From a virus: a stretch of DNA of 35,892 nt. The notes beneath the pieces were generated by a model, which searched no databases, was not told the DNA's origin, and saw only the letters and a list, made by a program, of their open reading frames with translations. The stretch covers positions 1 through 35,892 of the IMG/VR virus record IMGVR_UViG_3300041405_000195. One strand, given 5' to 3'. Shown one piece after another: positions 26,521-35,892 of this stretch (position 1 is its first letter; the number at the start of each line of letters is the position of its first letter). The position numbers and the translations under genes were made by a program.

Positions 26521-26768
26521 ACCACGCCGTTAAAACCGCCCTCGAGGCCCGCCACATCGCCTGCATGCCCAAGGCCCTGGACTGGCTCAGCCAACTGGAG
26601 AAAGCCGCGCGCCCAGGCAGTTTTCTGGGCGCTGCCGAATACCAGGGCCGGCTGACCGGCTACCTCATGGCCATGGCCGACCACGACCTCATTCAATGGG
26701 CCGTCACCCAGCGGGCCCTGCGCGACCTACAAACCCTCGCCACCACCTGGGAGCAGTCAGGCCAATGA
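26517..26768 (+). CDS. Hypothetical protein (83 aa)
   Basis: ATGA overlaps at both ends. Confidence 0.5.
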   Translation: MNHAVKTALEARHIACMPKALDWLSQLEKAARPGSFLGAAEYQGRLTGYLMAMADHDLIQWAVTQRALRDLQTLATTWEQSGQ

Positions 26769-29491
26769 AGACGATGGAACGCGAGATCCGTAGCGAAGTA
26801 CTGCGCCGCCTGGAATCCGACTACGGCCTGCAGCACGCCAAGGGCACGCCCTGGATGCGCAAGGGAACCTGCCCGAGCTGCGGCAAAAAGGAGCTTTATT
26901 CCCGCCAGGACGAGCCCTGGTTCATCCGCTGTGGCCGCGAGAGCAAGTGCGGTGAGCAGTGGCACGTCAAAGAGCTGTTCGAGGATCTGTTCGACGACTG
27001 GAGCAAGCGCGCCCCGGCCAGCGAAGCGGCCCCCAACGCCTCGGTCGACAGCTACCTGCAGTTCGCCCGCGGCTTCGACCTGAGCCGGATCAAGGGCTGG
27101 TACAGCCAGGACAACTACTGGGATCGCGCCCAGGGCATCGGCAGCGCCACCGTGCGCTTCCCCCTGGACAAAGGCGGCTACTGGGAACGCCTCATCGACC
27201 GCCCGCACCGCTTCGGCAAGATGAAAGCCCGCTTCGCCCCCGGCCAGTCGCCTCGCGGCCACTGGTGGTGCCCGCCATGCATCGACCTGCTCGAGGCCAC
27301 GGAACTGTGGATAGTCGAGGGCATCTTCGACGCCATCGCTCTGCTGCACCATGGCATCGCCGCCGTGTCGGCCATGAGCAGCGCCTACTTCCCCGAGGAA
27401 TCGCTCAAGGAATTGTCCCGCCTGCGCGGCGGCAAACTGCCCAAGCTGGTCTGGGCGCTGGACAACGAGCCCGGCGCGCACCGCTACACCCGCAAGCACG
27501 TCAAGCTGGCCCGCGAGCTGGGCTACAGCTGCACGGCCGCGCAGATTCCCCAGCGCGATCGCAAGGCCGACTGGAACGACCTGCACCAGCGCTGGGCGTT
27601 TATCGACGACGCCGACAAGCGCGCCGACAAGGTCGAGCGCGACCTCAAGGAAGCCCGCTACCACGGCGCCCTGCTGCTGGCCGAAAGCGCCGCCGAGAAG
27701 GGCGTGTTGATGTACGAATGGCGCGAGCGCCACGAGTTCCACTTCGGCTTCGAGAGCCGCCTGTACTGGTTCAAGATGGATCTGGATAAGTTCAACAAGG
27801 CCATGCAGCACCTGGAGCAGTCCGAGCGCCAGGAAGATCAGTTGCTCAATGACAAGCAGGTCCGCGAGAAAGCCCTGCGCCAGTGCGGCGCCGTGGTCGA
27901 GATCGCCAACTGCTACCCCACCGCCCTGTACTTCCAGCGCAACGAGGTCACCGACGAGTCCTGGTACTACTTCCGCGTCGACTTCCCGCACGACGCCCCA
28001 GCGGTGCGCAACACCTTCACCGGTGGCCAGGTGGCCGCCGCCAGCGAGTTCAAGAAGCGCCTGCTCGGCATGGCCGCCGGCGCCGTATTCACCGGTACCG
28101 GTGGCCAGCTCGACAAGATCATGAAAGACCAGCTGTACGGCCTGAAAACCGTGCAGACCATCGACTACGTGGGCTACAGCAAAGAGCACGCCTGTTATGT
28201 GTTCGGCGACGTGGCGGTGCATGGCGGCCTGGTCGAGAAGGCCAACGCCGAGGACTACTTCGAGTTCAAGAAGCTGCGCCTCAAGACCCTGCAGAAGTCC
28301 ATCCGCCTGGAAATCGCCCGCGACAGCCACGGCTACCGGGAGGAGTGGCTCGACTGGCTGTGGACCTGTTTCGGCGCCCAGGGCGTGATCGCCCTGGGCT
28401 TCTGGTTTGGCTCGCTGTTCGCCGAGCAGATCCGCGCCGAGTTCCAGTCCTTCCCGTTTCTGGAGGTGACCGGCGAGGCCGGCGCCGGCAAATCGACCCT
28501 GCTGATGTTCCTCTGGAAGCTGCTCGGCCGCCCCGACGAAGAAGGCAAAGACCCCTCGAAGATGAGCCGCGCCGGCCTGCGCCGCTGGATGGGCCAGGTA
28601 TCGGGCATGCCCCTGGTGCTGCTCGAGGCCGACCGCAGCGACAACGACCGCGGCCCGGCCAAGGCCTACGACTGGGACGAGCTAAAGCCCCTGTTCAACG
28701 GCGGCACCCTGGGCGTCACCGGCGTCAAGACCGCCGGCAACGAAACCCACGAACCACCCTTTCGCGGCACCATCGCCATCAGCCAAAACGCCACTGTGGT
28801 GGCCTCTGAGGCCATCCTCACGCGCATCATCAAGCTGCACTTCGTCCGCCCGCAGGTCACCAGCGCCAGCCGCGCCGCCGCCGACAACCTCAACCACCTC
28901 TCGGCCATGGACGTCAGCCACTTTCTGCTGCTGGCAACCAAGGCCGAGCAGCCGGTGCTCGAGGTGTTCCGCCGCCAGGTCAAGGTGCATGAGCAAGCCC
29001 TGCGCGCCCTCAACCAGATCCGCGTCGAGCGAATCATCAAGAACCATGCCCAGCTGATGGCAGCGGTAGACGCCATGCGCCTGATGGTGGCCCTCACCGA
29101 CCAGCAGCACAGCGCCGCCATGACCGAGCTGACCCGCATGGCGGTCGAGCGCCAAGGCGCAATCAACGCCGACCCGCAAGAAGTGGCCGAGTTCTGGGAG
29201 GTGTTCGAGTACCTGGAGACGATCAGCGACGAAGCCGTGGTGGACCACAGCAAAAACCCCGAGCTGATCGCCATCAACCTCAACGAATTCTGCGAGCGCG
29301 CCGCCGAGCACCGCCAGAAGCTCGCCGATATCGCCACCCTGCGCAACCTGCTCAAGAGCAGCCGCAGCCGCACCTTCATCGAGAGCAACAAGAGCGTCGA
29401 CAGCGCCGTGCGCGCCGCCTTCAACGCCCGCAACGGCGGCATAGCCGCCCGCTGCACCACCGTCAAATGCTGGATTTTCAACAAACCGTAA
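26765..29491 (+). CDS. Replication protein: Zn-ribbon plus TOPRIM primase plus P-loop helicase (P4 alpha-like organisation)
   Basis: 908 aa from the ATG at 26765. It carries CPSCG...C..C, the TOPRIM motifs LWIVEGIFDAIAL and WALDNEPGA, Walker A GEAGAGKST (28472-28498) and Walker B-like LVLLEAD. Confidence 0.85.
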   Translation: MKTMEREIRSEVLRRLESDYGLQHAKGTPWMRKGTCPSCGKKELYSRQDEPWFIRCGRESKCGEQWHVKELFEDLFDDWSKRAPASEAAPNASVDSYLQFARGFDLSRIKGWYSQDNYWDRAQGIGSATVRFPLDKGGYWERLIDRPHRFGKMKARFAPGQSPRGHWWCPPCIDLLEATELWIVEGIFDAIALLHHGIAAVSAMSSAYFPEESLKELSRLRGGKLPKLVWALDNEPGAHRYTRKHVKLARELGYSCTAAQIPQRDRKADWNDLHQRWAFIDDADKRADKVERDLKEARYHGALLLAESAAEKGVLMYEWRERHEFHFGFESRLYWFKMDLDKFNKAMQHLEQSERQEDQLLNDKQVREKALRQCGAVVEIANCYPTALYFQRNEVTDESWYYFRVDFPHDAPAVRNTFTGGQVAAASEFKKRLLGMAAGAVFTGTGGQLDKIMKDQLYGLKTVQTIDYVGYSKEHACYVFGDVAVHGGLVEKANAEDYFEFKKLRLKTLQKSIRLEIARDSHGYREEWLDWLWTCFGAQGVIALGFWFGSLFAEQIRAEFQSFPFLEVTGEAGAGKSTLLMFLWKLLGRPDEEGKDPSKMSRAGLRRWMGQVSGMPLVLLEADRSDNDRGPAKAYDWDELKPLFNGGTLGVTGVKTAGNETHEPPFRGTIAISQNATVVASEAILTRIIKLHFVRPQVTSASRAAADNLNHLSAMDVSHFLLLATKAEQPVLEVFRRQVKVHEQALRALNQIRVERIIKNHAQLMAAVDAMRLMVALTDQQHSAAMTELTRMAVERQGAINADPQEVAEFWEVFEYLETISDEAVVDHSKNPELIAINLNEFCERAAEHRQKLADIATLRNLLKSSRSRTFIESNKSVDSAVRAAFNARNGGIAARCTTVKCWIFNKP

Positions 29492-29516
29492 GGGCTGCAA
29501 CCCGAACGCGATCACC

Positions 29517-29538
29517 CCAAAGGAGAAGCACCATGCAA
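29517..29538 (+). repeat. 22-nt RBS/start module CCAAAGGAGAAGCACCATGCAA, copy 1
   Basis: Exact copies occur at 29675-29696 and 30108-30129. Confidence 0.9.
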
Positions 29539-29667
29539 ACCCACGACAACGACCAAACCAGCGGCCTGGAACTCGCCCTCACCCTGATCGGCAGCGCCAT
29601 CGCCCTGGTAGCGCTGGTAGCCATCGCCAGCCAAGTGCCCGACCTGCTGCTGGCCCTCGCCCGCTAA
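29533..29667 (+). CDS. 44-aa small membrane protein
   Basis: Strong AAGGAGA RBS and one hydrophobic helix (LELALTLIGSAIALVALVAIA). Confidence 0.5.
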   Translation: MQTHDNDQTSGLELALTLIGSAIALVALVAIASQVPDLLLALAR

Positions 29668-29674
29668 CCCACCG

Positions 29675-29696
29675 CCAAAGGAGAAGCACCATGCAA
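29675..29696 (+). repeat. 22-nt RBS/start module, copy 2
   Basis: Exact repeat. Confidence 0.9.
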
Positions 29697-30047
29697 ACAG
29701 CACGTGACCGCATACAAGACGACCTCAACCGCCTGGCAGTGGAAGAAGCCGAGCGGCCCTACATCCGACAGGCCGGCATCGAGGCCCTGCACCGGCTGGT
29801 GCCGGTAGCGCAGCGCGACAGCGGACAGAGCCGCATCGTCGGTTGCTTCCTGCTCGGCCTCTATAACGGCAGCGCCTTCCCCTTCCCACTCACCGACCTG
29901 CGCGGGCTGGACACGGCACTGTGGAACGACTGCATGGCGCTGCTGCGCCTGGACCGGCGCCCCGAACAAGAGATGCATGAGTACATCGAGAACGGCGAGG
30001 CGATCTGGTCGCAACTGAAAAAAGACTGGGCGCCACGCGCCAACTGA
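29691..30047 (+). CDS. Hypothetical protein (118 aa)
   Basis: Preceded by the same 22-nt RBS/start module as its neighbours. Confidence 0.6.
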   Translation: MQTARDRIQDDLNRLAVEEAERPYIRQAGIEALHRLVPVAQRDSGQSRIVGCFLLGLYNGSAFPFPLTDLRGLDTALWNDCMALLRLDRRPEQEMHEYIENGEAIWSQLKKDWAPRAN

Positions 30048-30107
30048 CACCGGCCAAGCCGGAAAAAGACAGCGCCGAGGGGCTGCAACCCCTCGACGCC
30101 AACCACC

Positions 30108-30129
30108 CCAAAGGAGAAGCACCATGCAA
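30108..30129 (+). repeat. 22-nt RBS/start module, copy 3
   Basis: Exact repeat. Copies 1 and 3 also share GGGCTGCAACCC 13-16 nt upstream. Confidence 0.9.
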
Positions 30130-30387
30130 GTGAATCAACCCCAAGGCGGCAGCGCAGAGGCTAGCACGAACACCTTCGCCATCGGCGACAAGATCAGCTA
30201 TGTGAAGGTCACCAGCAGCGGCAACAGCTACCGCTTTAGCGCCCGTGAAGGCGTCATCACCGAAATCAACGGCCAGGTGGCCACCGTCAAGGCACGCAAT
30301 GGCCGCACCACTACCCAGCAGCTCAACAAGCTAACCCCGGAAGGCCAGCCCAATGCGCTGACCCGCGCGCTGATGGGGGGTAACTGA
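30124..30387 (+). CDS. Hypothetical protein (87 aa)
   Basis: Preceded by the same 22-nt RBS/start module. Confidence 0.6.
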   Translation: MQVNQPQGGSAEASTNTFAIGDKISYVKVTSSGNSYRFSAREGVITEINGQVATVKARNGRTTTQQLNKLTPEGQPNALTRALMGGN

Positions 30388-30389
30388 TC

Positions 30390-30995
30390 ATGACTCACTA
30401 CTTCTATAAGTCCGAAGCCCCCGCCGTTGTCGCCCTGGTCAGCGACTGGTTCAAACAAAGGGCCGCATTCGACGCTCAACGTAAACAGCTGGGTAAGGTT
30501 TTCGGCGCCGCAACCTCGCCGATGAGTTCAGGCGACAGCACCTACGTCGGCGGCGTGAAGCTCAGCGCCAGTTGTGAACTGGACGTGCACTGGCGTCGGC
30601 CCGATGACTACGGTTACCGCTGCCTGCGCCACAAGGCGATGCCACCCAAGGGCACCAGCAAGGAAGACCGTACCGCCATGCGCGCCGAGCATGAGCGCCT
30701 ACAAGCCCTTTGGGAGCAGCACTGCCCGAAGCGCATCAGCAGCGACGAAACGTGGCAGCAGCTCAACGTCAACACCGGCAACCTATGGATGTGCGGCGGC
30801 GTGATGTTCGAACTGAGCGGCACCACCTACTTTGCCCTCGGCTTCCAGATCAACAAGTCCGAGCACCACGACAACGTCGCGGCCGGCAAACCAACCGCCG
30901 GCTGGATCGAAGGCGCCATCGAGATCCTGCCCAGCGAATACGAAGCCGCCCGCACCAAGAAGCTCGAGCAGCAAAAGGAGGTGGCTAGTGCCTAA
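30390..30995 (+). CDS. Hypothetical protein (201 aa)
   Basis: Clean ORF starting 2 nt after the previous stop. No family was recognised. Confidence 0.6.
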   Translation: MTHYFYKSEAPAVVALVSDWFKQRAAFDAQRKQLGKVFGAATSPMSSGDSTYVGGVKLSASCELDVHWRRPDDYGYRCLRHKAMPPKGTSKEDRTAMRAEHERLQALWEQHCPKRISSDETWQQLNVNTGNLWMCGGVMFELSGTTYFALGFQINKSEHHDNVAAGKPTAGWIEGAIEILPSEYEAARTKKLEQQKEVASA

Positions 30996-31203
30996 CCCAA
31001 CCACCACCGACCGCACCCGCCCACCGTTGGCCAGCCACCGCCTGAGCCTGCCCAGCATCTGCGACATCTGCGGCAAAGCCCGCTCCACCCGCAAGCACCA
31101 GGCCTGCAGCCGCCTGCGCCAACAACTCAAAGCCGCCGAGTGGGAAACCACCCTGGCCGAGAAGACTGCGAAAGCAGCCAGGGGGCGACGTTATGCTCGC
31201 TAA
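30988..31203 (+). CDS. 71-aa basic Cys/His-containing protein (C-x2-C-x9-H-x2-C)
   Basis: GTG start at 30988 with AAGGAGG 6 nt upstream. It overlaps both neighbouring genes. Confidence 0.5.
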   Translation: MPNPTTTDRTRPPLASHRLSLPSICDICGKARSTRKHQACSRLRQQLKAAEWETTLAEKTAKAARGRRYAR

Positions 31204-32983
31204 ACGAATCCTCAAGCACTTCCACTTCTGCTGTGGCCTCGGCGGCGGCGCCAAGGGCTTCAACCGCGCCAAGCCGGTGGTCGGCACCCTGCAGGCCGAG
31301 TGGCGCTGCCTCGGCGGCATCGATGTCGACCCGGCCGGGCTGCGCGACTTCCAACGCCTGGCCGGCGTGCCCGGCACCCTGCTCGATCTGTTCACGCGCA
31401 GCCAGTACACCCGTTTTCACGGCGTCGAGCCGCCGGCCGGTTGGCGCGAAGCAACGCCCGACGACATCCGACGCGCAGCGCAGAACGATGATCCGGACGC
31501 GGTGTTCATCAGCAGCCCCTGCAAGGGCGCGAGCGGGTTGCTCTCGGAAACCATGAGCCTCACCCCGAAGTACCAGGCGCTCAACGAGCTGACCCTGCGC
31601 TGCGTCTGGCTGATGTGTGAAGCCTGGAAGCACAACCCGGTATCGCTGATAGTCTTCGAGAACGTCCCGCGCCTGGCCACCCGAGGCCGCCACCTGCTCG
31701 ACCAGATCGGCAAGCTGCTCGAGTACTACGGCTATGCAGTGGCAGAAACCACCCACGACTGCGGCGTGATCGGCGGCCTGGCACAGAGCCGCAAACGCTT
31801 CCTGCTGGTCGCCCGCCACGTCGAGAAGGTTCCGCCGTTCCTCTACGAGCCCGAGAAAAAGACCCTGCGCGCAGTCGGCGACATCCTCGGCCGCATGCCC
31901 CTGGCCGGCGACATCGATGCCGCCGGGCCGATGCATCGGGTACCGGCCCTGCAGTGGAAAACCTGGGTGCGTCTGGCCCTGGTCACGGCCGGCAAAGACT
32001 GGCGCTCGCTCAACGAGCTGGCGATCGAGGACGGCTACCTGCGCGACCTGATCATCGTGCCGGAGTACCGCGCCGGTTACCTGGGTGTGCATGACTGGCG
32101 CGACACCGCCGGCACCGTCGCCGGCCGCTCCAGCCCCACCAATGGCGCGTTCTCGGTCGCAGATCCACGCGCCCGTGAAGGCGCCTTGCAATACCAGCAG
32201 TACGGCGTGCGCCGCTGGGACGAAACCAGCGGCGCGGTGATCGGCGTCAAGTCGCCCGGGCAAGGCACGTTCAGCGTGGCGGACCCGCGCGACCCAGGAA
32301 TAGGGCACGCCAAATACAACGTTGCTCAGTGGGATGGCGTGTCGCGCACTGTTATCTCCGGCAGTACCACGGGTCAGGGTGCGTTTGCAGTACAGGACCC
32401 GCGTCACATGGGCGCAGCGAAACACTCTAACGAGTTCCGCATCGTCCCTTACAACCGAGCAACTCAAACCGTCACCAGCGCTCACGGCACAGGCCAGTGC
32501 GTAGCCGACCCGCGTCCAGGCATGGCAAAAGAGAAAGGTGATGCCTATCTCACCGGCGGCCACTACGGTGTTGTCGGCTTCGACCAGGCTGCCGGCGCAG
32601 TATCAGCCAGCGCCTGCCACGACAACGGCCGCTGGTCTGTGGCTGACCCGAGGATGCCGGCGGCTGCCGACCGCCTGACCTGCATCATCACCAGCCTGGA
32701 CGGCACATGGCACCGCCCATTCACTACCCTGGAGCTGGCTGCGCTGCAATCGCTGGTTGATCCCGAGGAACAGCTCGAATTGGACGGCCTCAGCGACCAG
32801 TCCTGGCGCGAACGCATCGGTAATGCAGTACCGCCAGACGCTGCGGAAGCGATCGGCCACGTCATGGGCACCACCCTGCTGCTGGCCGGCGCCGGCGAGA
32901 CCTTCATGCTCAGCAACATGCCGATCTGGGTGCGCCCGGTCGCGGTTGGGCTGAGCGTCAGCCAGCTGGAGGTGCGGCCATGA
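31193..32983 (+). CDS. DNA (cytosine-5) methyltransferase with an expanded, internally repeated variable region
   Basis: Motif I is HFCCGLGGG, motif IV SSPCKG (Cys110), motif VI ENV (156-158), motif VIII QSRKRF and motif X GNAVPP. Five repeats of about 30 aa ending in (F)SVADPR lie between motifs VIII and X. Confidence 0.88.
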   Translation: MLAKRILKHFHFCCGLGGGAKGFNRAKPVVGTLQAEWRCLGGIDVDPAGLRDFQRLAGVPGTLLDLFTRSQYTRFHGVEPPAGWREATPDDIRRAAQNDDPDAVFISSPCKGASGLLSETMSLTPKYQALNELTLRCVWLMCEAWKHNPVSLIVFENVPRLATRGRHLLDQIGKLLEYYGYAVAETTHDCGVIGGLAQSRKRFLLVARHVEKVPPFLYEPEKKTLRAVGDILGRMPLAGDIDAAGPMHRVPALQWKTWVRLALVTAGKDWRSLNELAIEDGYLRDLIIVPEYRAGYLGVHDWRDTAGTVAGRSSPTNGAFSVADPRAREGALQYQQYGVRRWDETSGAVIGVKSPGQGTFSVADPRDPGIGHAKYNVAQWDGVSRTVISGSTTGQGAFAVQDPRHMGAAKHSNEFRIVPYNRATQTVTSAHGTGQCVADPRPGMAKEKGDAYLTGGHYGVVGFDQAAGAVSASACHDNGRWSVADPRMPAAADRLTCIITSLDGTWHRPFTTLELAALQSLVDPEEQLELDGLSDQSWRERIGNAVPPDAAEAIGHVMGTTLLLAGAGETFMLSNMPIWVRPVAVGLSVSQLEVRP

Positions 32984-34215
32984 ACCATCAAGCCGATATC
33001 TTCGCCGCCGGCGCCCAGCGCCTGCAGATGACCGACAGCATAGAGCTGACCATTCAGTCCCTGCTGGCCTACGGTGAATCGCATGAGCACTGGGGCATTG
33101 CCTGGTCTGGCGGAAAGGATTCCAGCGCCACCCTGACGCTGATCATGTACCTGATCGACTCCAGCAAGATCCCGGCACCGAAGACCCTCACCGTGTTCTA
33201 TGCCGACACCCGCCAGGAGCTGCCGCCGCTGGCGATCGCCGCCCAGCAGATCATGGACGAGTTGGCGGAGCGCGGCGTGCGCATCGAGGTGGTCACTGCG
33301 CCGATGGACAAGCGTTTCATGGTCTACATCCTCGGCCGCGGTGTGCCGCCGCCGAACAACAACACGCTGCGCTGGTGTACCCGGCAGATCAAGATCGACC
33401 CGATGCAAGCAGCGCTCGAGCACCGCCTGGCCGAGCTCGAGGGCAACGTGCTGATGATCACCGGCGTGCGCCAAGGCGAAAGCGCGATCCGCGACAAGCG
33501 CATAGAGATGAGCTGCGGCAAGGATGGCGCCGAGTGTGGCCAGGGCTGGTACCAGAAGGTGCTGCCCGAAGCGAAGGGCCTGCGCGGCCGCCTGGCCACC
33601 CTGGCACCGCTGCTGCACTGGCGCGTCTGCCATGTGTGGGAGTGGCTCAAGCACTGGGCGCCACAAGCCGAGTTCGGCGACTGGTCGACCGCTACCGTTG
33701 CCGACGCCTACGGCGGCGACGAGGCCGAAGAAATCAACGCGCGCACCGGCTGTATCGGTTGCCCGCTGGCCAGCGAGGACAAGGCGCTCGATACCATCCT
33801 GCTCAACCCTGCATGGGCGTACCTGCGACCGCTCAAGGGCATCAAGACTCTCTGGCGCGAGCTGCGCGAGCCACAGCACCGCCTGCGTAAGGCAGGCTTC
33901 GAGTACTTGAAGGACGGCAGCGCGGCAGCGAATCCCCAGCGCATGGGACCGCTCACCTTTGAGGCTCGACTGATGGGGCTGGAACGCATCCTGGGCATCC
34001 AGGCCAAGGTCAACACAGCGGCGGATCGCCTCGGCCGTCCGCACATCGACCTGATCAACGCCGAGGAGGAGGCCCGCATCCGCGAACTGATCGCCGCCGG
34101 CACCTGGCCGAACGGCTGGGCCGGCGACGAACCCACCGCCGACACCCCAATGGATCAAATCAACGCTGACGGCTCGGTGCAGCCACTGCTGTTCCTGGAG
34201 GTGCAGCATGGCTGA
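32980..34215 (+). CDS. PP-loop ATP pyrophosphatase of the PAPS-reductase/DndC-like family
   Basis: SGGKDS (33106-33123), a downstream RWCTRQIK motif, and Cys clusters SCGKDGAEC and GCIGCP that suggest an Fe-S site. Confidence 0.75.
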   Translation: MNHQADIFAAGAQRLQMTDSIELTIQSLLAYGESHEHWGIAWSGGKDSSATLTLIMYLIDSSKIPAPKTLTVFYADTRQELPPLAIAAQQIMDELAERGVRIEVVTAPMDKRFMVYILGRGVPPPNNNTLRWCTRQIKIDPMQAALEHRLAELEGNVLMITGVRQGESAIRDKRIEMSCGKDGAECGQGWYQKVLPEAKGLRGRLATLAPLLHWRVCHVWEWLKHWAPQAEFGDWSTATVADAYGGDEAEEINARTGCIGCPLASEDKALDTILLNPAWAYLRPLKGIKTLWRELREPQHRLRKAGFEYLKDGSAAANPQRMGPLTFEARLMGLERILGIQAKVNTAADRLGRPHIDLINAEEEARIRELIAAGTWPNGWAGDEPTADTPMDQINADGSVQPLLFLEVQHG

Positions 34216-34465
34216 GTGTCGCTTTTGCGCAGGCTCTTGCTGCACTGCCTGCCAACAGACCGGCCTGGAGGGCAACCCGCACCAGGTCGGCGCGCTGCTG
34301 GACTATCGCAACGACGACCCCGAGCGGCTCATCGATGAGGCGCGCAACAGGGCCAAGCTACTGAGCTACGCCGACTGGGAAACCCCGATCGGTATCTGGA
34401 CCGGCCAGGCCCATGGCAGTGAGCTGGTTGAAATCTGGTACCAGGGACGGCAGTTCCGCGGCTGA
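34208..34465 (+). CDS. 85-aa protein with an N-terminal Cys cluster (C-x2-C-x3-CC-x2-C)
   Basis: It overlaps the previous gene by 8 nt, with GGAGG upstream. Confidence 0.55.
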   Translation: MAECRFCAGSCCTACQQTGLEGNPHQVGALLDYRNDDPERLIDEARNRAKLLSYADWETPIGIWTGQAHGSELVEIWYQGRQFRG

Positions 34466-34498
34466 TCCGAACACCTAGAAAAACCACAACAAACCTCT

Positions 34499-34524
34499 AG
34501 GCCCGGTAACGGGCCTTTTCTTTT
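34499..34524 (+). terminator. Rho-independent terminator ending the early/accessory operon
   Basis: AGGCCCG-GTAA-CGGGCCT followed by TTTTCTTTT. Confidence 0.85.
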
Positions 34525-34567
34525 CCGGCCAGTAAGCTGGATTTTTCGCAATAGCGTGGGGACGCAA

Positions 34568-35734
34568 ATGGCAGATGGTGTAGAAGTGCGCGGCAATCGC
34601 GTGCGCGTGTATTTCAGGTACCAGGGCGAGTTATGCCGGGAGACAATGCCGGGCGATGCCAGCCCGGAGAACATCACCAACGCCGAGCGCATCGCCGGCA
34701 TCATCAATTACGAGATCAAGGCGGGCACGTTCAGCTATGCGCGGTACTTCCCGGAGTCGCCCAGGATCCAGACCAACACGCTGGGGCATTACATCGATCT
34801 TTGGCTTGAGATAAAGGGCAACCAGATGGCACCGTCCGGCTATCGGACGTACAAGAGCAAGGTAGAAGCGCACATCCGCCCGCGCTGGGGCCACCACCAG
34901 GCCGATCAGATCGACCACTTAGACCTGCAGAGCTGGATTCAGACCACGCTGATGCCGGAGCTGCACAACAAAACAGTGCGCGAAATCATCAGCCTGCTGC
35001 GCCAGGTGTTTGTGATTTACCGCACACGCAACAAAACCGCCCATGATCCGACCGAGGGGCTTGGCGTCACACTGCCCGATCCAGACGAGGCCGACCCGTT
35101 CAACCGTAACGAGATCCGTGACATCCTGGGCGGTGCAACGAACAAGCCGCAGGAACTCCACTTGGCGCAGTTCATGCTCTGGGCCGGGCCACGGGTATCG
35201 GAGGCGATATCGCTGGCCTGGGAGGACGTCGACCTCAAGGCCGGAACGGTGAAGTTCCGTCGATCTCAGGTGCGCGGTCACTACAAGGTCACCAAGACCC
35301 GGCGCTCCACCCGCGAGGTACGTCTGCTCAAGCCTGCACTGGATGCACTCAAGGCGCAGGCACGTTTCACCGAGCAGGCGCAGCCAGTAGACATCGAGGT
35401 GACGGACAGGGACAACAAGACCAAGAAGCGGGTAAAGGTGCGTTTCGTTTTCCACTGCACCACCACAAACGCGGCGCACAGCAGCTCGGACATGCTGCTC
35501 AAGGGCTTCTGGCGCCCGCACCTGCAGTCTGTCGGCGTGCGCTACCGCGGCCCGAACAACTGCCGCCACACCTACGCCAGCCAGCTGCTCAGCACCGGCG
35601 CCGTGCCCATCGACTGGATCGCCGACCAGCTAGGCCACACGTCCACGGCCATGATCTGGCGCCACTACGGTAAATGGATCAACCAGGACGGGCCGGACAT
35701 GATTAGCCTGCTCGAGCACGCGCTAAAGCTGTAA
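34568..35734 (+). CDS. int: Tyrosine integrase
   Basis: 388 aa from the ATG at 34568 (the track GTG is at 34556). The N-terminal arm-binding type is VEVRGNRVRVYF. The C-terminus has R...HxxR (CRHTYAS)...GH...Y (RHYGKW). The gene is adjacent to att. Confidence 0.92.
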   Translation: MADGVEVRGNRVRVYFRYQGELCRETMPGDASPENITNAERIAGIINYEIKAGTFSYARYFPESPRIQTNTLGHYIDLWLEIKGNQMAPSGYRTYKSKVEAHIRPRWGHHQADQIDHLDLQSWIQTTLMPELHNKTVREIISLLRQVFVIYRTRNKTAHDPTEGLGVTLPDPDEADPFNRNEIRDILGGATNKPQELHLAQFMLWAGPRVSEAISLAWEDVDLKAGTVKFRRSQVRGHYKVTKTRRSTREVRLLKPALDALKAQARFTEQAQPVDIEVTDRDNKTKKRVKVRFVFHCTTTNAAHSSSDMLLKGFWRPHLQSVGVRYRGPNNCRHTYASQLLSTGAVPIDWIADQLGHTSTAMIWRHYGKWINQDGPDMISLLEHALKL

Positions 35735-35822: not shown

Positions 35823-35865
35823 TGCCGAGCGCAGAAAACGAAACCCTTTGAAAACAGCACCTTAG

Positions 35866-35892
35866 ATGGTGCGGACGGAGAGACTCGAACTC
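35866..35892. repeat. att core, right copy (phage-supplied 3' end of the target tRNA)
   Basis: Exact 27-nt repeat of 1-27. It lies about 130 nt downstream of the integrase gene. Identity may extend further but is truncated by the window edge. Confidence 0.85.
35867..35892 (-). tRNA. tRNA gene, 3' terminal 26 nt only (body and anticodon lie outside the window)
   Basis: The minus-strand reading ends ...GTTCGAGTCTCTCCGTCCGCACCA with an encoded CCA. Discriminator A and the T-arm are compatible with a Leu-type tRNA, but the anticodon is not visible. Confidence 0.7.

Follow-up and report, generated by a model that had tools for sequence, protein, structure and literature searches.

DndC (TIGR03183) is the sulfurtransferase of the DndABCDE phosphorothioation system, and its C-terminal region forms the binding site for DndD (PMC12193691). 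PAPS-reductase-type PP-loop domains also serve DNA phosphorothioation in BrxP (BREX type 4) and SspD (SspABCD), and all four established phosphorothioation systems require an NTPase partner (PMC12914056). One group of Vibrio podoviruses owes an anti-Dnd function to two group-specific genes; one is a PAPS-Dam fusion (p0018 of Vibrio crassostreae podovirus 44E38.1), and moving the two-gene locus to a related phage led to escape from Dnd (Piel et al., bioRxiv 10.1101/2021.05.05.442762). PAPS reductases are likewise located in anti-defence operons (PMC13551039), and in the Burkholderia phages phiE125 and phi644-2 an insertion hotspot carries two morons side by side, a PAPS reductase and a methylase (PMC2920897). 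Here, we compare these systems with a four-gene locus that combines a DndC-like PP-loop protein, a DNA methylase and two cysteine-containing mini-proteins.

Prophage setting and operon layout

The window, i.e. the whole 35,892-nt stretch of DNA analyzed, is a complete phiCTX/P2-like Pseudomonas prophage. Citexvirus phages match it in the structural genes and at the accessory end, and the accessory gene content just 5' of the integrase gene (int) differs between relatives. The integrase is 68% identical to that of phiCTX, and int marks a variable accessory-gene site. The early (replication) operon ends distally in the four-gene region, which, with its surroundings, comprises the following features:

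30988..31203, + strand: mini-protein 1 (71 aa, GTG start; phrog_10699)
31193..32983, + strand: C5-cytosine DNA methyltransferase (MTase; 596 aa; PF00145 at 4e-11)
32060..32653, + strand: five tandem repeats of ~40 aa each in the methylase variable region, each ending (S/A/C)V(A/Q)DPR
32966..32982, + strand: junction 1, CTGGAGGTGCGGCCATG, with the methylase 3' end (LEVRP, then stop), SD and PP-loop start codon
32980..34215, + strand: DndC-like PP-loop ATP pyrophosphatase with Fe-S-type cysteines (411 aa; PF01507 at 4e-11; phrog_12882)
34195..34210, + strand: junction 2, CTGGAGGTGCAGCATG, the second junction copy, which gives the PP-loop protein its LEVQHG tail
34208..34465, + strand: mini-protein 2 (85 aa), encoded immediately 5' of int
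34499..34524, + strand: intrinsic terminator (hairpin 34499-34516, 7-bp stem with 6 GC pairs, then a T-run; TTTCTTTT)
34556..35734, + strand: tyrosine integrase (int; PF12167, PF00589, PF14659), context only

A sequence-only reading had described four overlapping genes followed by a terminator and int, an arrangement borne out by the open reading frames and the hairpin search. Mini-protein 1 starts 8 nt inside the upstream gene (end 30995), the MTase 11 nt inside mini-protein 1, the PP-loop gene at an ATGA overlap with the MTase end, and mini-protein 2 8 nt inside the PP-loop gene. A good SD had been assigned to each gene; this holds for mini-protein 1 (AAGGAGGT), the PP-loop gene and mini-protein 2 (GGAGGT in both), all strong, whereas that of the MTase (AGGGGG) is weaker than the other three. 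Between 29400 and 35892 we found no promoter-like site, and the first plus-strand terminator-like site is that at 34499, which closes the early operon. The tight coupling had also been taken as a sign of joint action. However, overlaps are the norm in this prophage: a rough gene call counts 13 overlaps among 32 same-strand junctions, five of them in one run in the tail genes, and the chain itself continues upstream of mini-protein 1. The overlapping stop and start codons reflect the usual compact arrangement of this operon.

Two mini-proteins without a dedicated partner

Mini-protein 1, the counterpart of phiCTX orf40, matches phrog_10699 at 3e-29. A long helix follows the CCHC zinc knuckle of this basic protein, whose motif is C25-x2-C28-x8-H37-x2-C40; a spacing of x9 had been given for the histidine, while the motifs quoted for the PP-loop protein and mini-protein 2 are all present. 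Across the 241 clusters of the family, C25, C28, H37 and C40 are invariant and Arg is frequent. A fold search with the AF2 model (pLDDT 71) gave no match. The gene encodes a conserved zinc-knuckle protein of Pseudomonas prophages. It is also found 5' of unrelated genes, without the MTase in two related loci (L013 and L168) and without the PP-loop gene in phiCTX and L169, and is specific to neither enzyme.

Mini-protein 2 carries C4-x2-C7-x3-C11C12-x2-C15, as had been reported. Its family (17 clusters) combines a conserved C-terminal domain with an optional N-terminal Cys knuckle; most homologues retain four cysteines, but 3 of 16 aligned clusters lack the knuckle and only three have C11. The gene occurs in one of 166 PP-loop loci and in none of 80 methylase loci. 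It stands directly 3' of a methylase, with no PP-loop gene, in L169/L170, and 5' of int with neither enzyme in L168. Mini-protein 2 is a pre-integrase gene, specific to neither enzyme.

The remaining combinations follow the same pattern. phiCTX combines mini-protein 1 with the methylase and lacks the PP-loop gene; D14A and Dobby have mini-protein 1, MTase and PP-loop gene, followed by different genes; L169/L170 have mini-protein 1, MTase and mini-protein 2; L168 has mini-protein 1, a 109-aa gene and mini-protein 2; and L013 has mini-protein 1, a 72-aa gene and the PP-loop gene, with no MTase. Of the 80 closest MTase homologue loci, only 4 contain the PP-loop gene. The sequence-only reading proposed one DNA-modification machine of four translationally coupled genes, acting on or beside 5mC, with the mini-proteins assisting the PP-loop enzyme in an Fe-S, zinc or sulfur-relay role. 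The real overlaps and SDs, the invariant CCHC motif of mini-protein 1, the four cysteines kept in most mini-protein 2 homologues and the enrichment of the PP-loop gene beside methylases (see below) speak for such a machine. Yet all four genes assort independently in related prophages, a result that the sequence-only reading itself had listed as speaking against it; the Cys knuckle of mini-protein 2 is dispensable, and neither mini-protein behaves as a dedicated enzyme partner. The lack of specificity of both mini-proteins for either enzyme means that the locus is no obligate machine of four genes, and we regard this model as very unlikely. The best explanation, to which we assign a probability of roughly 0.6, is that the locus consists of separately acquired accessory cassettes: an MTase and a DndC-like, putatively DNA-modifying enzyme, together with two non-dedicated small proteins.

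Junctions and cassette insertion

The two near-identical junction strings noted on either side of the PP-loop gene are present as quoted. The 40 nt before the PP-loop start codon equal, except for one far-upstream base, the junction between MTase and mini-protein 2 in L169/L170, which lack the PP-loop gene. Among ten close PP-loop homologues, the conserved core ends in DGSVQPLLF and continues into variable tails (T, I, V, LEVQP, LEVRP, LESQQ, LEVAHA or, longer, RELTHFSIEGANHE); the D14A and Dobby proteins end in LLFC, and the LEVRP tail is identical to that of the methylase. The junction identity is non-random, and cassette insertion between methylase and mini-protein 2 accounts for it. The PP-loop gene went exactly into the junction of the methylase and the next gene, which became duplicated, with an SD-bearing linker (LEV-type codons, GGAGGT) recurring at cassette boundaries.

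A methylase with tandem repeats

The MTase, which also matches phrog_116 and phrog_32684, corresponds to phiCTX orf41 (82% identity) and contains motifs I (FCCGLGGG), IV (PCK109), VI (ENV156), VIII (QSRKR198), IX (RPFTTLE508) and X (GNA543). The DPR motifs of its five repeats lie at aa 324, 364, 402, 439 and 485, and homologues have 3 to 6 copies, roughly following protein length. The position of the repeats between motifs VIII and IX suggests that they are putative target-recognition modules. The C5-methyltransferases of the Bacillus phages SPR, phi3T and rho11s are multispecific, and they share with the MTase a phage origin and a variable region with several tandem modules between the same motifs. 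The likeness is one of layout. The DPR-ending repeats, with a copy number that varies from 3 to 6, are peculiar to the present Pseudomonas/Burkholderiales phage family; by analogy with the Bacillus enzymes, the prophage enzyme may be multispecific as well.

A DndC-like PP-loop protein

The PP-loop protein, annotated in databases as 'PAPS reductase', contains SGGKDS (43-48), RWCT (C133), SCGKDGAEC (C179, C186) and GCIGCP (C258, C261), and a further cysteine, C217, that the earlier motif list did not include. In an alignment of 35 family members, the invariant residues include S43, G45, K46, D47, S48, C133, C186, C217, C258 and C261, and C179 is near-invariant. Profile searches confirmed the expectation that the protein is DndC-like and not CysH-like: it reaches 818 bits with phrog_12882, 110-113 bits with DndC models (PADLOC DndC at 6e-33), 46 bits with BrxP, 39 bits with SspD and 16.7 bits with the CysH model (cut-off 154), with no match to DUF3440. 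Its next plasmid relatives beyond its own family are bona fide dndC genes (25-30% identity). Grouped at 90% identity, the family comprises at least 5509 clusters; grouped at 50%, it has 1326 representatives. The 160 related loci that we retrieved are 65-89% identical, and those among them with a named genome come mostly from gamma-, beta- and alpha-proteobacteria. The protein is, judged from its sequence, a member of a widespread, uncharacterized DndC-like family.

Similarity to DndC includes the PP-loop SGGKDS, the RWCT cysteine and the CxxC pair (C133, C258 and C261 equal DndC C146, C280 and C283), and collinear homology over about 350-380 residues, including the stretch after the PAPS-reductase domain. 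Differences are equally clear. Three of the four DndC Fe-S cysteines are kept, whereas the fourth ligand, C273, has no positional counterpart; nor does C262, and the protein has its own C179, C186 and C217. Collinearity stops at W380 (aligned to DndC W407), and the final ~136 residues of DndC, where the DndD-binding surface lies, are missing. The 110 bits with TIGR03183 are far under the family cut-off of 290. Moreover, the gene is phage-encoded and unaccompanied by dndA, dndB, dndD or dndE, and an NTPase partner of the phosphorothioation type is missing from the prophage. BrxP and SspD, with their much weaker similarity, likewise depend on a dedicated NTPase (BrxC or SspC) that is absent here, and BrxP has a fused SspB-like DNA-binding domain.

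The Vibrio fusion resembles the locus as a phage-encoded PAPS/DndC-type domain physically coupled to a DNA methylase. However, it joins an N6-adenine methylase to a PAPS domain of only ~170 aa, in contrast to a separate 411-aa protein beside a C5 methylase, and its absence from the tblastn matches of the PP-loop protein indicates a different subfamily of PAPS domain, not a close homologue. Near relatives are the 'PAPS reductase' morons of Pseudomonas phages Dobby, vB_PaeM-D14A and phiC725A and Rhizobium phage RR1-A, which belong to the same family (72-84% identity, phrog_12882) and occupy variable early or int-proximal regions adjoining methylases. Nothing essential separates them from this copy, which has another downstream neighbour and the junction-derived LEVQHG tail. 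The Burkholderia phage moron is similar by its description (PMC2920897).

The name raises the reading of an auxiliary metabolic gene whose product, a PAPS/APS reductase, would strengthen assimilatory sulfate reduction in the lysogen; this was proposed for the Burkholderia phages (PMC2920897) and is in line with database annotations. The Pfam PAPS_reduct match agrees, as does the AF2 model (pLDDT 88), whose best solved fold matches are APS/PAPS reductases. Against this stand the CysH score, far below those of the DndC models, about 130 extra C-terminal residues that align with DndC but not CysH, and the lack of a separate promoter-like site for the gene, which lies next to DNA methylases in an early lytic operon; we consider a metabolic role extremely unlikely.

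Another reading is that the enzyme thiolates or otherwise modifies a nucleobase or RNA instead of the DNA backbone. TtcA, NcsA and TtuA, the models for such a reaction, are [4Fe-4S] PP-loop enzymes that adenylate a base carbonyl and swap in sulfur. The fold search also retrieved NcsA, TilS, LarE and GMP synthetase; the conserved extra cysteines C179, C186 and C217 are placed differently from those of DndC; and the NTPase that phosphorothioation needs is lacking. Nonetheless, DndC is clearly nearest in sequence, over about 350 residues, and profile search detected no tRNA-binding domain such as THUMP or PUA. DNA is not known to contain a thio-base, and this reading is improbable.

Methylase association and predicted function

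The PP-loop gene is enriched beside DNA methylases of at least three families. Of 166 PP-loop loci, 48 have a methylase at most 60 nt away on either side, another 31 have one within 1.5 kb and four more have one within 5 kb (83/166 in total), as scored with profiles of three main families (fam2 C5, fam3 C5 and fam5 N6/N4), which may miss some. In 53 loci whose flanks each extend to at least 3 kb, the same three profiles detect no methylase within 5 kb; a methylase partner is therefore not obligatory. The PP-loop domain is also matched by PADLOC model PDLC03333, which carries the label MTase_II. The suggested modification on top of 5mC is unlikely because the gene has N6/N4 methylases as partners too and often stands without any methylase.

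Our best guess for the PP-loop enzyme is DNA sulfur modification or evasion of phosphorothioate-based defence. Alternatively, the protein may be a non-catalytic decoy or inhibitor that sequesters host Dnd/Ssp components or cysteine desulfurase and leaves phage DNA unmodified. A DndC catalytic core that lacks the DndD-binding tail would suit a decoy, as would the PAPS reductases of anti-defence operons (PMC13551039) and the locus with a phage PAPS-domain fusion, genetically linked to Dnd escape with no mechanism established (bioRxiv 10.1101/2021.05.05.442762). The catalytic hallmarks (SGGKDS and five cysteines), however, are all invariant. Inhibitors usually diverge fast and lose catalytic residues, whereas this family, with 65-89% identity among phages whose hosts differ greatly, looks more like an enzyme. 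In addition, blocking host phosphorothioation alone would not stop DndFGH from attacking unmodified phage DNA, and we regard a decoy as unlikely.

As a DNA-modifying enzyme, the PP-loop protein would use ATP and cluster- or cysteine-bound sulfur, the latter probably supplied by a host cysteine desulfurase. Since it has no DndD-docking tail and the prophage encodes neither DndD nor DndE, it must find DNA alone or via another partner, possibly a methylase. The MTase, with its five putative target-recognition modules, would shield replicating phage DNA from restriction enzymes, and progeny modified by the PP-loop enzyme may escape phosphorothioate-based or similar host defences, for which the Vibrio phage PAPS-domain/Dam fusion locus offers a precedent.

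Gene layout of the accessory region

The window holds a complete P2/phiCTX-like (Citexvirus-related) Pseudomonas prophage whose structural genes are ~76–77% identical to those of phiCTX, Dobby, Sirocco and BR319a. Four genes, previously proposed to form one DNA-modification module, come last in the prophage's plus-strand early operon; a Toprim primase gene (26696–29491) belongs to the same operon.

Features of the accessory region
30988–31203, plus strand: mini-protein 1 (GTG start, 71 aa)
31193–32983, plus strand: C5-methyltransferase (596 aa)
32980–34215, plus strand: PP-loop protein (411 aa)
34208–34465, plus strand: mini-protein 2 (85 aa)
34499–34524, plus strand: hairpin with T-run, 3' of mini-protein 2
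34556 (start), plus strand: int, downstream of the hairpin and T-run

The reading frames, the overlaps and the terminator before int match the sequence-only reading. All motifs quoted there are present, with the spacing in mini-protein 1 corrected to C25-x2-C28-x8-H37-x2-C40. Overlaps along the chain measure 8, 11, 4 and 8 nt, and the chain extends upstream beyond mini-protein 1. Translational chaining, which had been taken as the sign of a special unit, is ordinary for this prophage: an approximate gene prediction gives overlaps at 13 of its 32 same-strand junctions, including five consecutive ones among the tail genes. No internal promoter-like site was found in the accessory region, and the first plus-strand terminator-like site lies at 34499.

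Directly upstream of mini-protein 1, a gene for a 201-aa phrog_2314 protein (30390–30995) stands in place of the TraR/DksA-like orf39 of phiCTX; this protein and mini-protein 1 occur together in several prophages (loci L013, L014 and L163). Read by eye on the minus strand, the last bases of the window (35860–35892) look like the 3' portion of a tRNA gene truncated where the window stops; a tRNA scan of the window (ARAGORN) found none. Such an end would fit the integration of phiCTX-type phages into a tRNA gene.

Independent assortment of the four genes

A four-gene machine, with the mini-proteins as Fe–S, zinc or sulfur-relay partners, had been argued from the tight coupling of the genes. Related phages and prophages carry them in other combinations.

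Gene order at the site before int in the window and in related phages and loci
phiCTX: mini-protein 1, methyltransferase, orf42
L169/L170: mini-protein 1, methyltransferase, mini-protein 2 (Cys-less form)
D14A (vB_PaeM-D14A) and Dobby: mini-protein 1, methyltransferase, PP-loop gene, 62-aa gene, DUF4224 gene
L168: mini-protein 1, 109-aa gene, mini-protein 2; neither enzyme
L013: mini-protein 1, 72-aa gene, PP-loop gene; no methylase; all genes overlap
Window: mini-protein 1, methyltransferase, PP-loop gene, mini-protein 2

Across 166 loci carrying a PP-loop homologue, mini-protein 1 was present in 23 and mini-protein 2 in one. Among the 80 closest methylase loci in IMG/VR, the PP-loop gene was found in 4, mini-protein 1 in 29 and mini-protein 2 in none. 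The four genes are not one unit, and combinations at the pre-int site vary among Citexvirus-like phages and prophages. Such independent assortment had itself been named as evidence against the four acting together.

The junctions point to how the present arrangement may have arisen. In L169/L170 the methylase directly abuts mini-protein 2, and the 40-nt stretch before the start codon at that boundary (...agccagctggaggtgcggccATGa) is the same as at the methylase/PP-loop boundary of the window, bar one far-upstream base. A second copy of the junction, ctggaggtgcagcATGg, forms the 3' end of the window's PP-loop gene and gives its product a LEVQHG tail. Beyond a conserved core that stops at ...DGSVQPLLF, ten close homologues have differing tails (T, I, V, LEVQP, LEVRP, LESQQ, LEVAHA or the longer RELTHFSIEGANHE), and the PP-loop proteins of D14A and Dobby end ...LLFC. 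The LEVRP tail is identical to the C-terminal tail of the methylase. The simplest reading of these sequences is that a PP-loop cassette was inserted at the methylase/mini-protein 2 junction, with duplication of the linker containing the Shine–Dalgarno (SD) sequence. The near-identity of the junctions would then record the arrival of a cassette, and it is not a shared regulatory signal.

A portable linker of this kind (CTGGAGGTGC.GC..ATG, with the SD inside and LEV-type tails encoded) recurs at cassette boundaries: at 32966–32982 and 34195–34210 in the window, and at the C-termini of the homologous PP-loop proteins P0169, P0170, P0198 and P0215. It confers the same tail on different genes, as with LEVRP on the methylase and on some PP-loop proteins, and may serve as microhomology for cassette exchange.

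The mini-proteins and the methylase

Mini-protein 1 belongs to phrog_10699, a family of 241 clusters whose named sources are all Pseudomonas. It is arginine-rich, and C25, C28, H37 and C40 are invariant across the family. A model of modest confidence predicts a zinc knuckle leading into a long helix, and a fold search with it gave no significant match. Com of phage Mu is likewise a small zinc finger whose gene lies upstream of a DNA-modification gene; we did not adopt this analogy, since unrelated genes too can follow mini-protein 1. Mini-protein 2 had no match in Pfam, NCBIfam, PHROG or PADLOC. Its family is small (17 clusters) and conserved in the C-terminal domain. Of 16 aligned clusters, 3 lack the N-terminal cysteine knuckle and only 3 have C11 of the "CC" pair.

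The 596-aa protein is a predicted C5-cytosine DNA methyltransferase: it scores 43.2 bits against PF00145 (cut-off 22), and motifs I, IV (PC), VI (ENV), VIII, IX and X were all located. It is 82% identical to phiCTX orf41. Five ~40-aa repeats in tandem make up its variable region (window 32060–32653, aa ~290–487), and every one of them closes with (S/A/C)V(A/Q)DPR. Homologues carry 3 to 6 copies, roughly following protein length (585–697 aa). The array looks like a modular set of putative target-recognition units and may make the enzyme multispecific.

The PP-loop protein resembles a DndC core without its docking module

The PP-loop protein passes PF01507, and the profile searches proposed in the sequence-only reading placed DndC (110–113 bits) far ahead of BrxP, SspD and CysH. 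Among specific models, those of DndC match best (TIGR03183, 110.3 bits; PADLOC DndC, 113 and 108 bits). The family threshold for DndC is not reached (TIGR03183 cut-off 290.4 against 110.3 bits; PRK06850 cut-off 536 against 111.6 bits), and the matches cover these profiles only as far as positions 359 (of 447) and 371 (of 505). Matches to BrxP (45.6 bits) and SspD (39 bits) cover the PP-loop domain only, and neither an SspB-like DNA-binding domain nor BrxC/SspC NTPase genes were found beside the PP-loop gene among the window genes scanned; by sequence, the protein does not qualify as a BrxP (BREX type 4) or SspD member.

A role in sulfate assimilation is what the annotation of the family suggests, phrog_12882 (phage 'PAPS reductase') being a full-length match (817.6 bits, residues 4–405 against profile 2–403 of 404). 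The score against assimilatory PAPS/APS reductase (CysH, PRK02090) is 16.7 bits against a cut-off of 154, and CysH has an architecture of ~240 aa, instead of 411 aa with a DndC-like C-terminal half. The N-terminal two-thirds of an AlphaFold model (pLDDT 88, built on a 35-sequence alignment) superpose in a fold search on APS/PAPS reductases, CysD and other PP-loop enzymes, breadth that would also accommodate base or RNA thiolation. Residues ~280–411 had no match in the PDB fold search, where no DndC structure exists; a PDB sequence search gave no match, and a search of a viral structure library nothing specific.

An alignment of the family against a genuine DndC of Salmonella, encoded in a dndBCDE operon, supports a DndC-like core. 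The SGGxDS motif (S43-G-G-K-D-S48) aligns with S50–S55 of DndC and varies little or not at all across the 35-sequence alignment, an intact motif being less expected of a decoy than of an active enzyme. The [4Fe–4S] cluster of DndC is ligated by C146, C273, C280 and C283 in E. coli B7A numbering (PMC12193691). Phage C133 corresponds to C146 and C258/C261 to C280/C283, whereas the segment with DndC C262/C273 is missing. The phage family has cysteines of its own, of which C186 and C217 are invariant and C179 near-invariant; any of these could supply the fourth ligand. Collinear homology ends at W380 (W407 of DndC), after which 31 residues remain, against 136 in DndC. The DndD-binding surface of DndC comprises residues 433–482 and the C-terminal helix, according to modelling backed by pull-down (PMC12193691). 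Because homology stops before this surface, the phage protein is a DndC catalytic core that lacks the docking module.

Potential partners are likewise missing. No DndD (ABC/SMC ATPase), DndE or other dedicated NTPase was detected among the genes scanned at 26696–35734, nor any DndE-like protein among the annotated neighbour families of the 166 loci. All four established phosphorothioation systems need an NTPase (PMC12914056). In about 13 other loci an SMC/AAA_23-type ATPase (580 aa) is encoded upstream of the PP-loop gene, at a distance of one to three genes (L015, L086, L090, L111, L114 and others, e.g. L114:2463–4205). Its likeness to DndD is confined to the Walker A region, so we do not regard it as DndD and read it as probably part of a phage recombination module; it may merit a closer look, since phosphorothioation systems require an NTPase.

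Distribution and gene neighbourhood of the PP-loop family

Clustered at 90% identity, the family has at least 5509 clusters; at the 50% level, 1326 representatives match with E ≤ 1e-3. The 160 related loci from genomes and viral contigs are 65–89% identical, their named organisms mostly gamma-, beta- and alpha-proteobacteria, and homologues in isolated Rhizobium and Microcystis phages are 64–72% identical. The only fusion partner found within the family is DUF6884, an uninformative domain (distant member P0068, 580 aa, with N-terminal DUF6884 and a PAPS-reductase domain).

Neighbour proteins of the 166 loci were clustered, and representatives of the largest families were annotated with Pfam. 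To detect methylases in the flanks, three family profiles (two C5, one N6/N4) were combined with a motif check. In 48 of 166 loci a methylase lies no more than 60 nt from the PP-loop gene, on one side or the other; it is within 1.5 kb in a further 31 and within 5 kb in 4 more. By these raw counts, more than half of the methylases within 5 kb are immediately adjacent. Of the loci whose flanks reach 3 kb or more on both sides, 53 gave no methylase within 5 kb with the three profiles, an upper bound because small or divergent methylases (such as the one in Mae-JY29) escape detection. Proteins that fuse a PAPS domain to a methylase exist, and the PADLOC "MTase_II" model matches the PP-loop domain. 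The affinity of this enzyme class for phage methylases is real, but neither obligate nor C5-specific. The proposal of a modification built on 5mC is accordingly disfavoured, as the PP-loop gene also sits beside N6/N4 methylases or none.

Seven loci (L040, L079, L136, L149, L150, L152 and L158), which belong to prophages in different hosts from this one, encode immediately upstream of the PP-loop gene a reverse transcriptase of ~480 aa (PF00078; PADLOC RT/DRT-type matches; e.g. L149:3223–4665), which suggests that the hotspot also gathers defence-type genes.

The PP-loop/methylase pair is already annotated in the Pseudomonas phages Dobby, D14A and phiC725A and the Rhizobium phage RR1-A. In Burkholderia phages, PAPS-reductase morons beside methylase morons were described at insertion hotspots in 2010 (PMC2920897), and a 2026 paper noted that anti-defence operons of phages contain PAPS reductases (PMC13551039). 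Vibrio podoviruses encode a PAPS–Dam fusion, and the two-gene locus containing it enabled a related phage to escape the host Dnd system (bioRxiv 10.1101/2021.05.05.442762). We did not find the missing DndD-docking tail, the family-specific cysteine arrangement or the junction-duplication footprint stated in the papers examined.

Proposed mechanism and implications

We propose that the four genes are independent cassettes and that the PP-loop protein is a DndC-like enzyme with catalytic activity, which acts on nucleic acid to counter host defence, a reading to which we assign a probability of roughly 0.6. In lytic growth, transcription of the early operon would run through to these genes at its end; the methylase would shield replicating DNA from restriction; and the PP-loop enzyme would use ATP and sulfur from a host desulfurase to modify DNA, or would defeat sulfur-based defence in another way. 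That its role is specifically DNA sulfur modification or anti-phosphorothioate defence we put forward tentatively, at a little under even odds. The rival readings, namely a decoy, thiolation of a base or RNA, sulfate assimilation and a four-gene machine, each received a much lower probability. It seems unlikely that such a minimal enzyme, without DndD, DndE or an NTPase, installs a phosphorothioate or thio-base, whether autonomously or through methylase-guided recognition.

The four-gene picture is thus corrected, with the PP-loop gene, alone or together with the methylase, as the minimal construct of interest. The PP-loop family is very large, highly conserved in prophages and routinely mis-annotated as a sulfate-assimilation enzyme. 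Its function would be either single-gene writing or counterfeiting of DNA sulfur marks, or a new escape from Dnd, Ssp and BREX-4. Were the autonomous or methylase-guided reading true, thousands of temperate phages would carry a portable, one-gene means of mimicking or evading phosphorothioate-based immunity.
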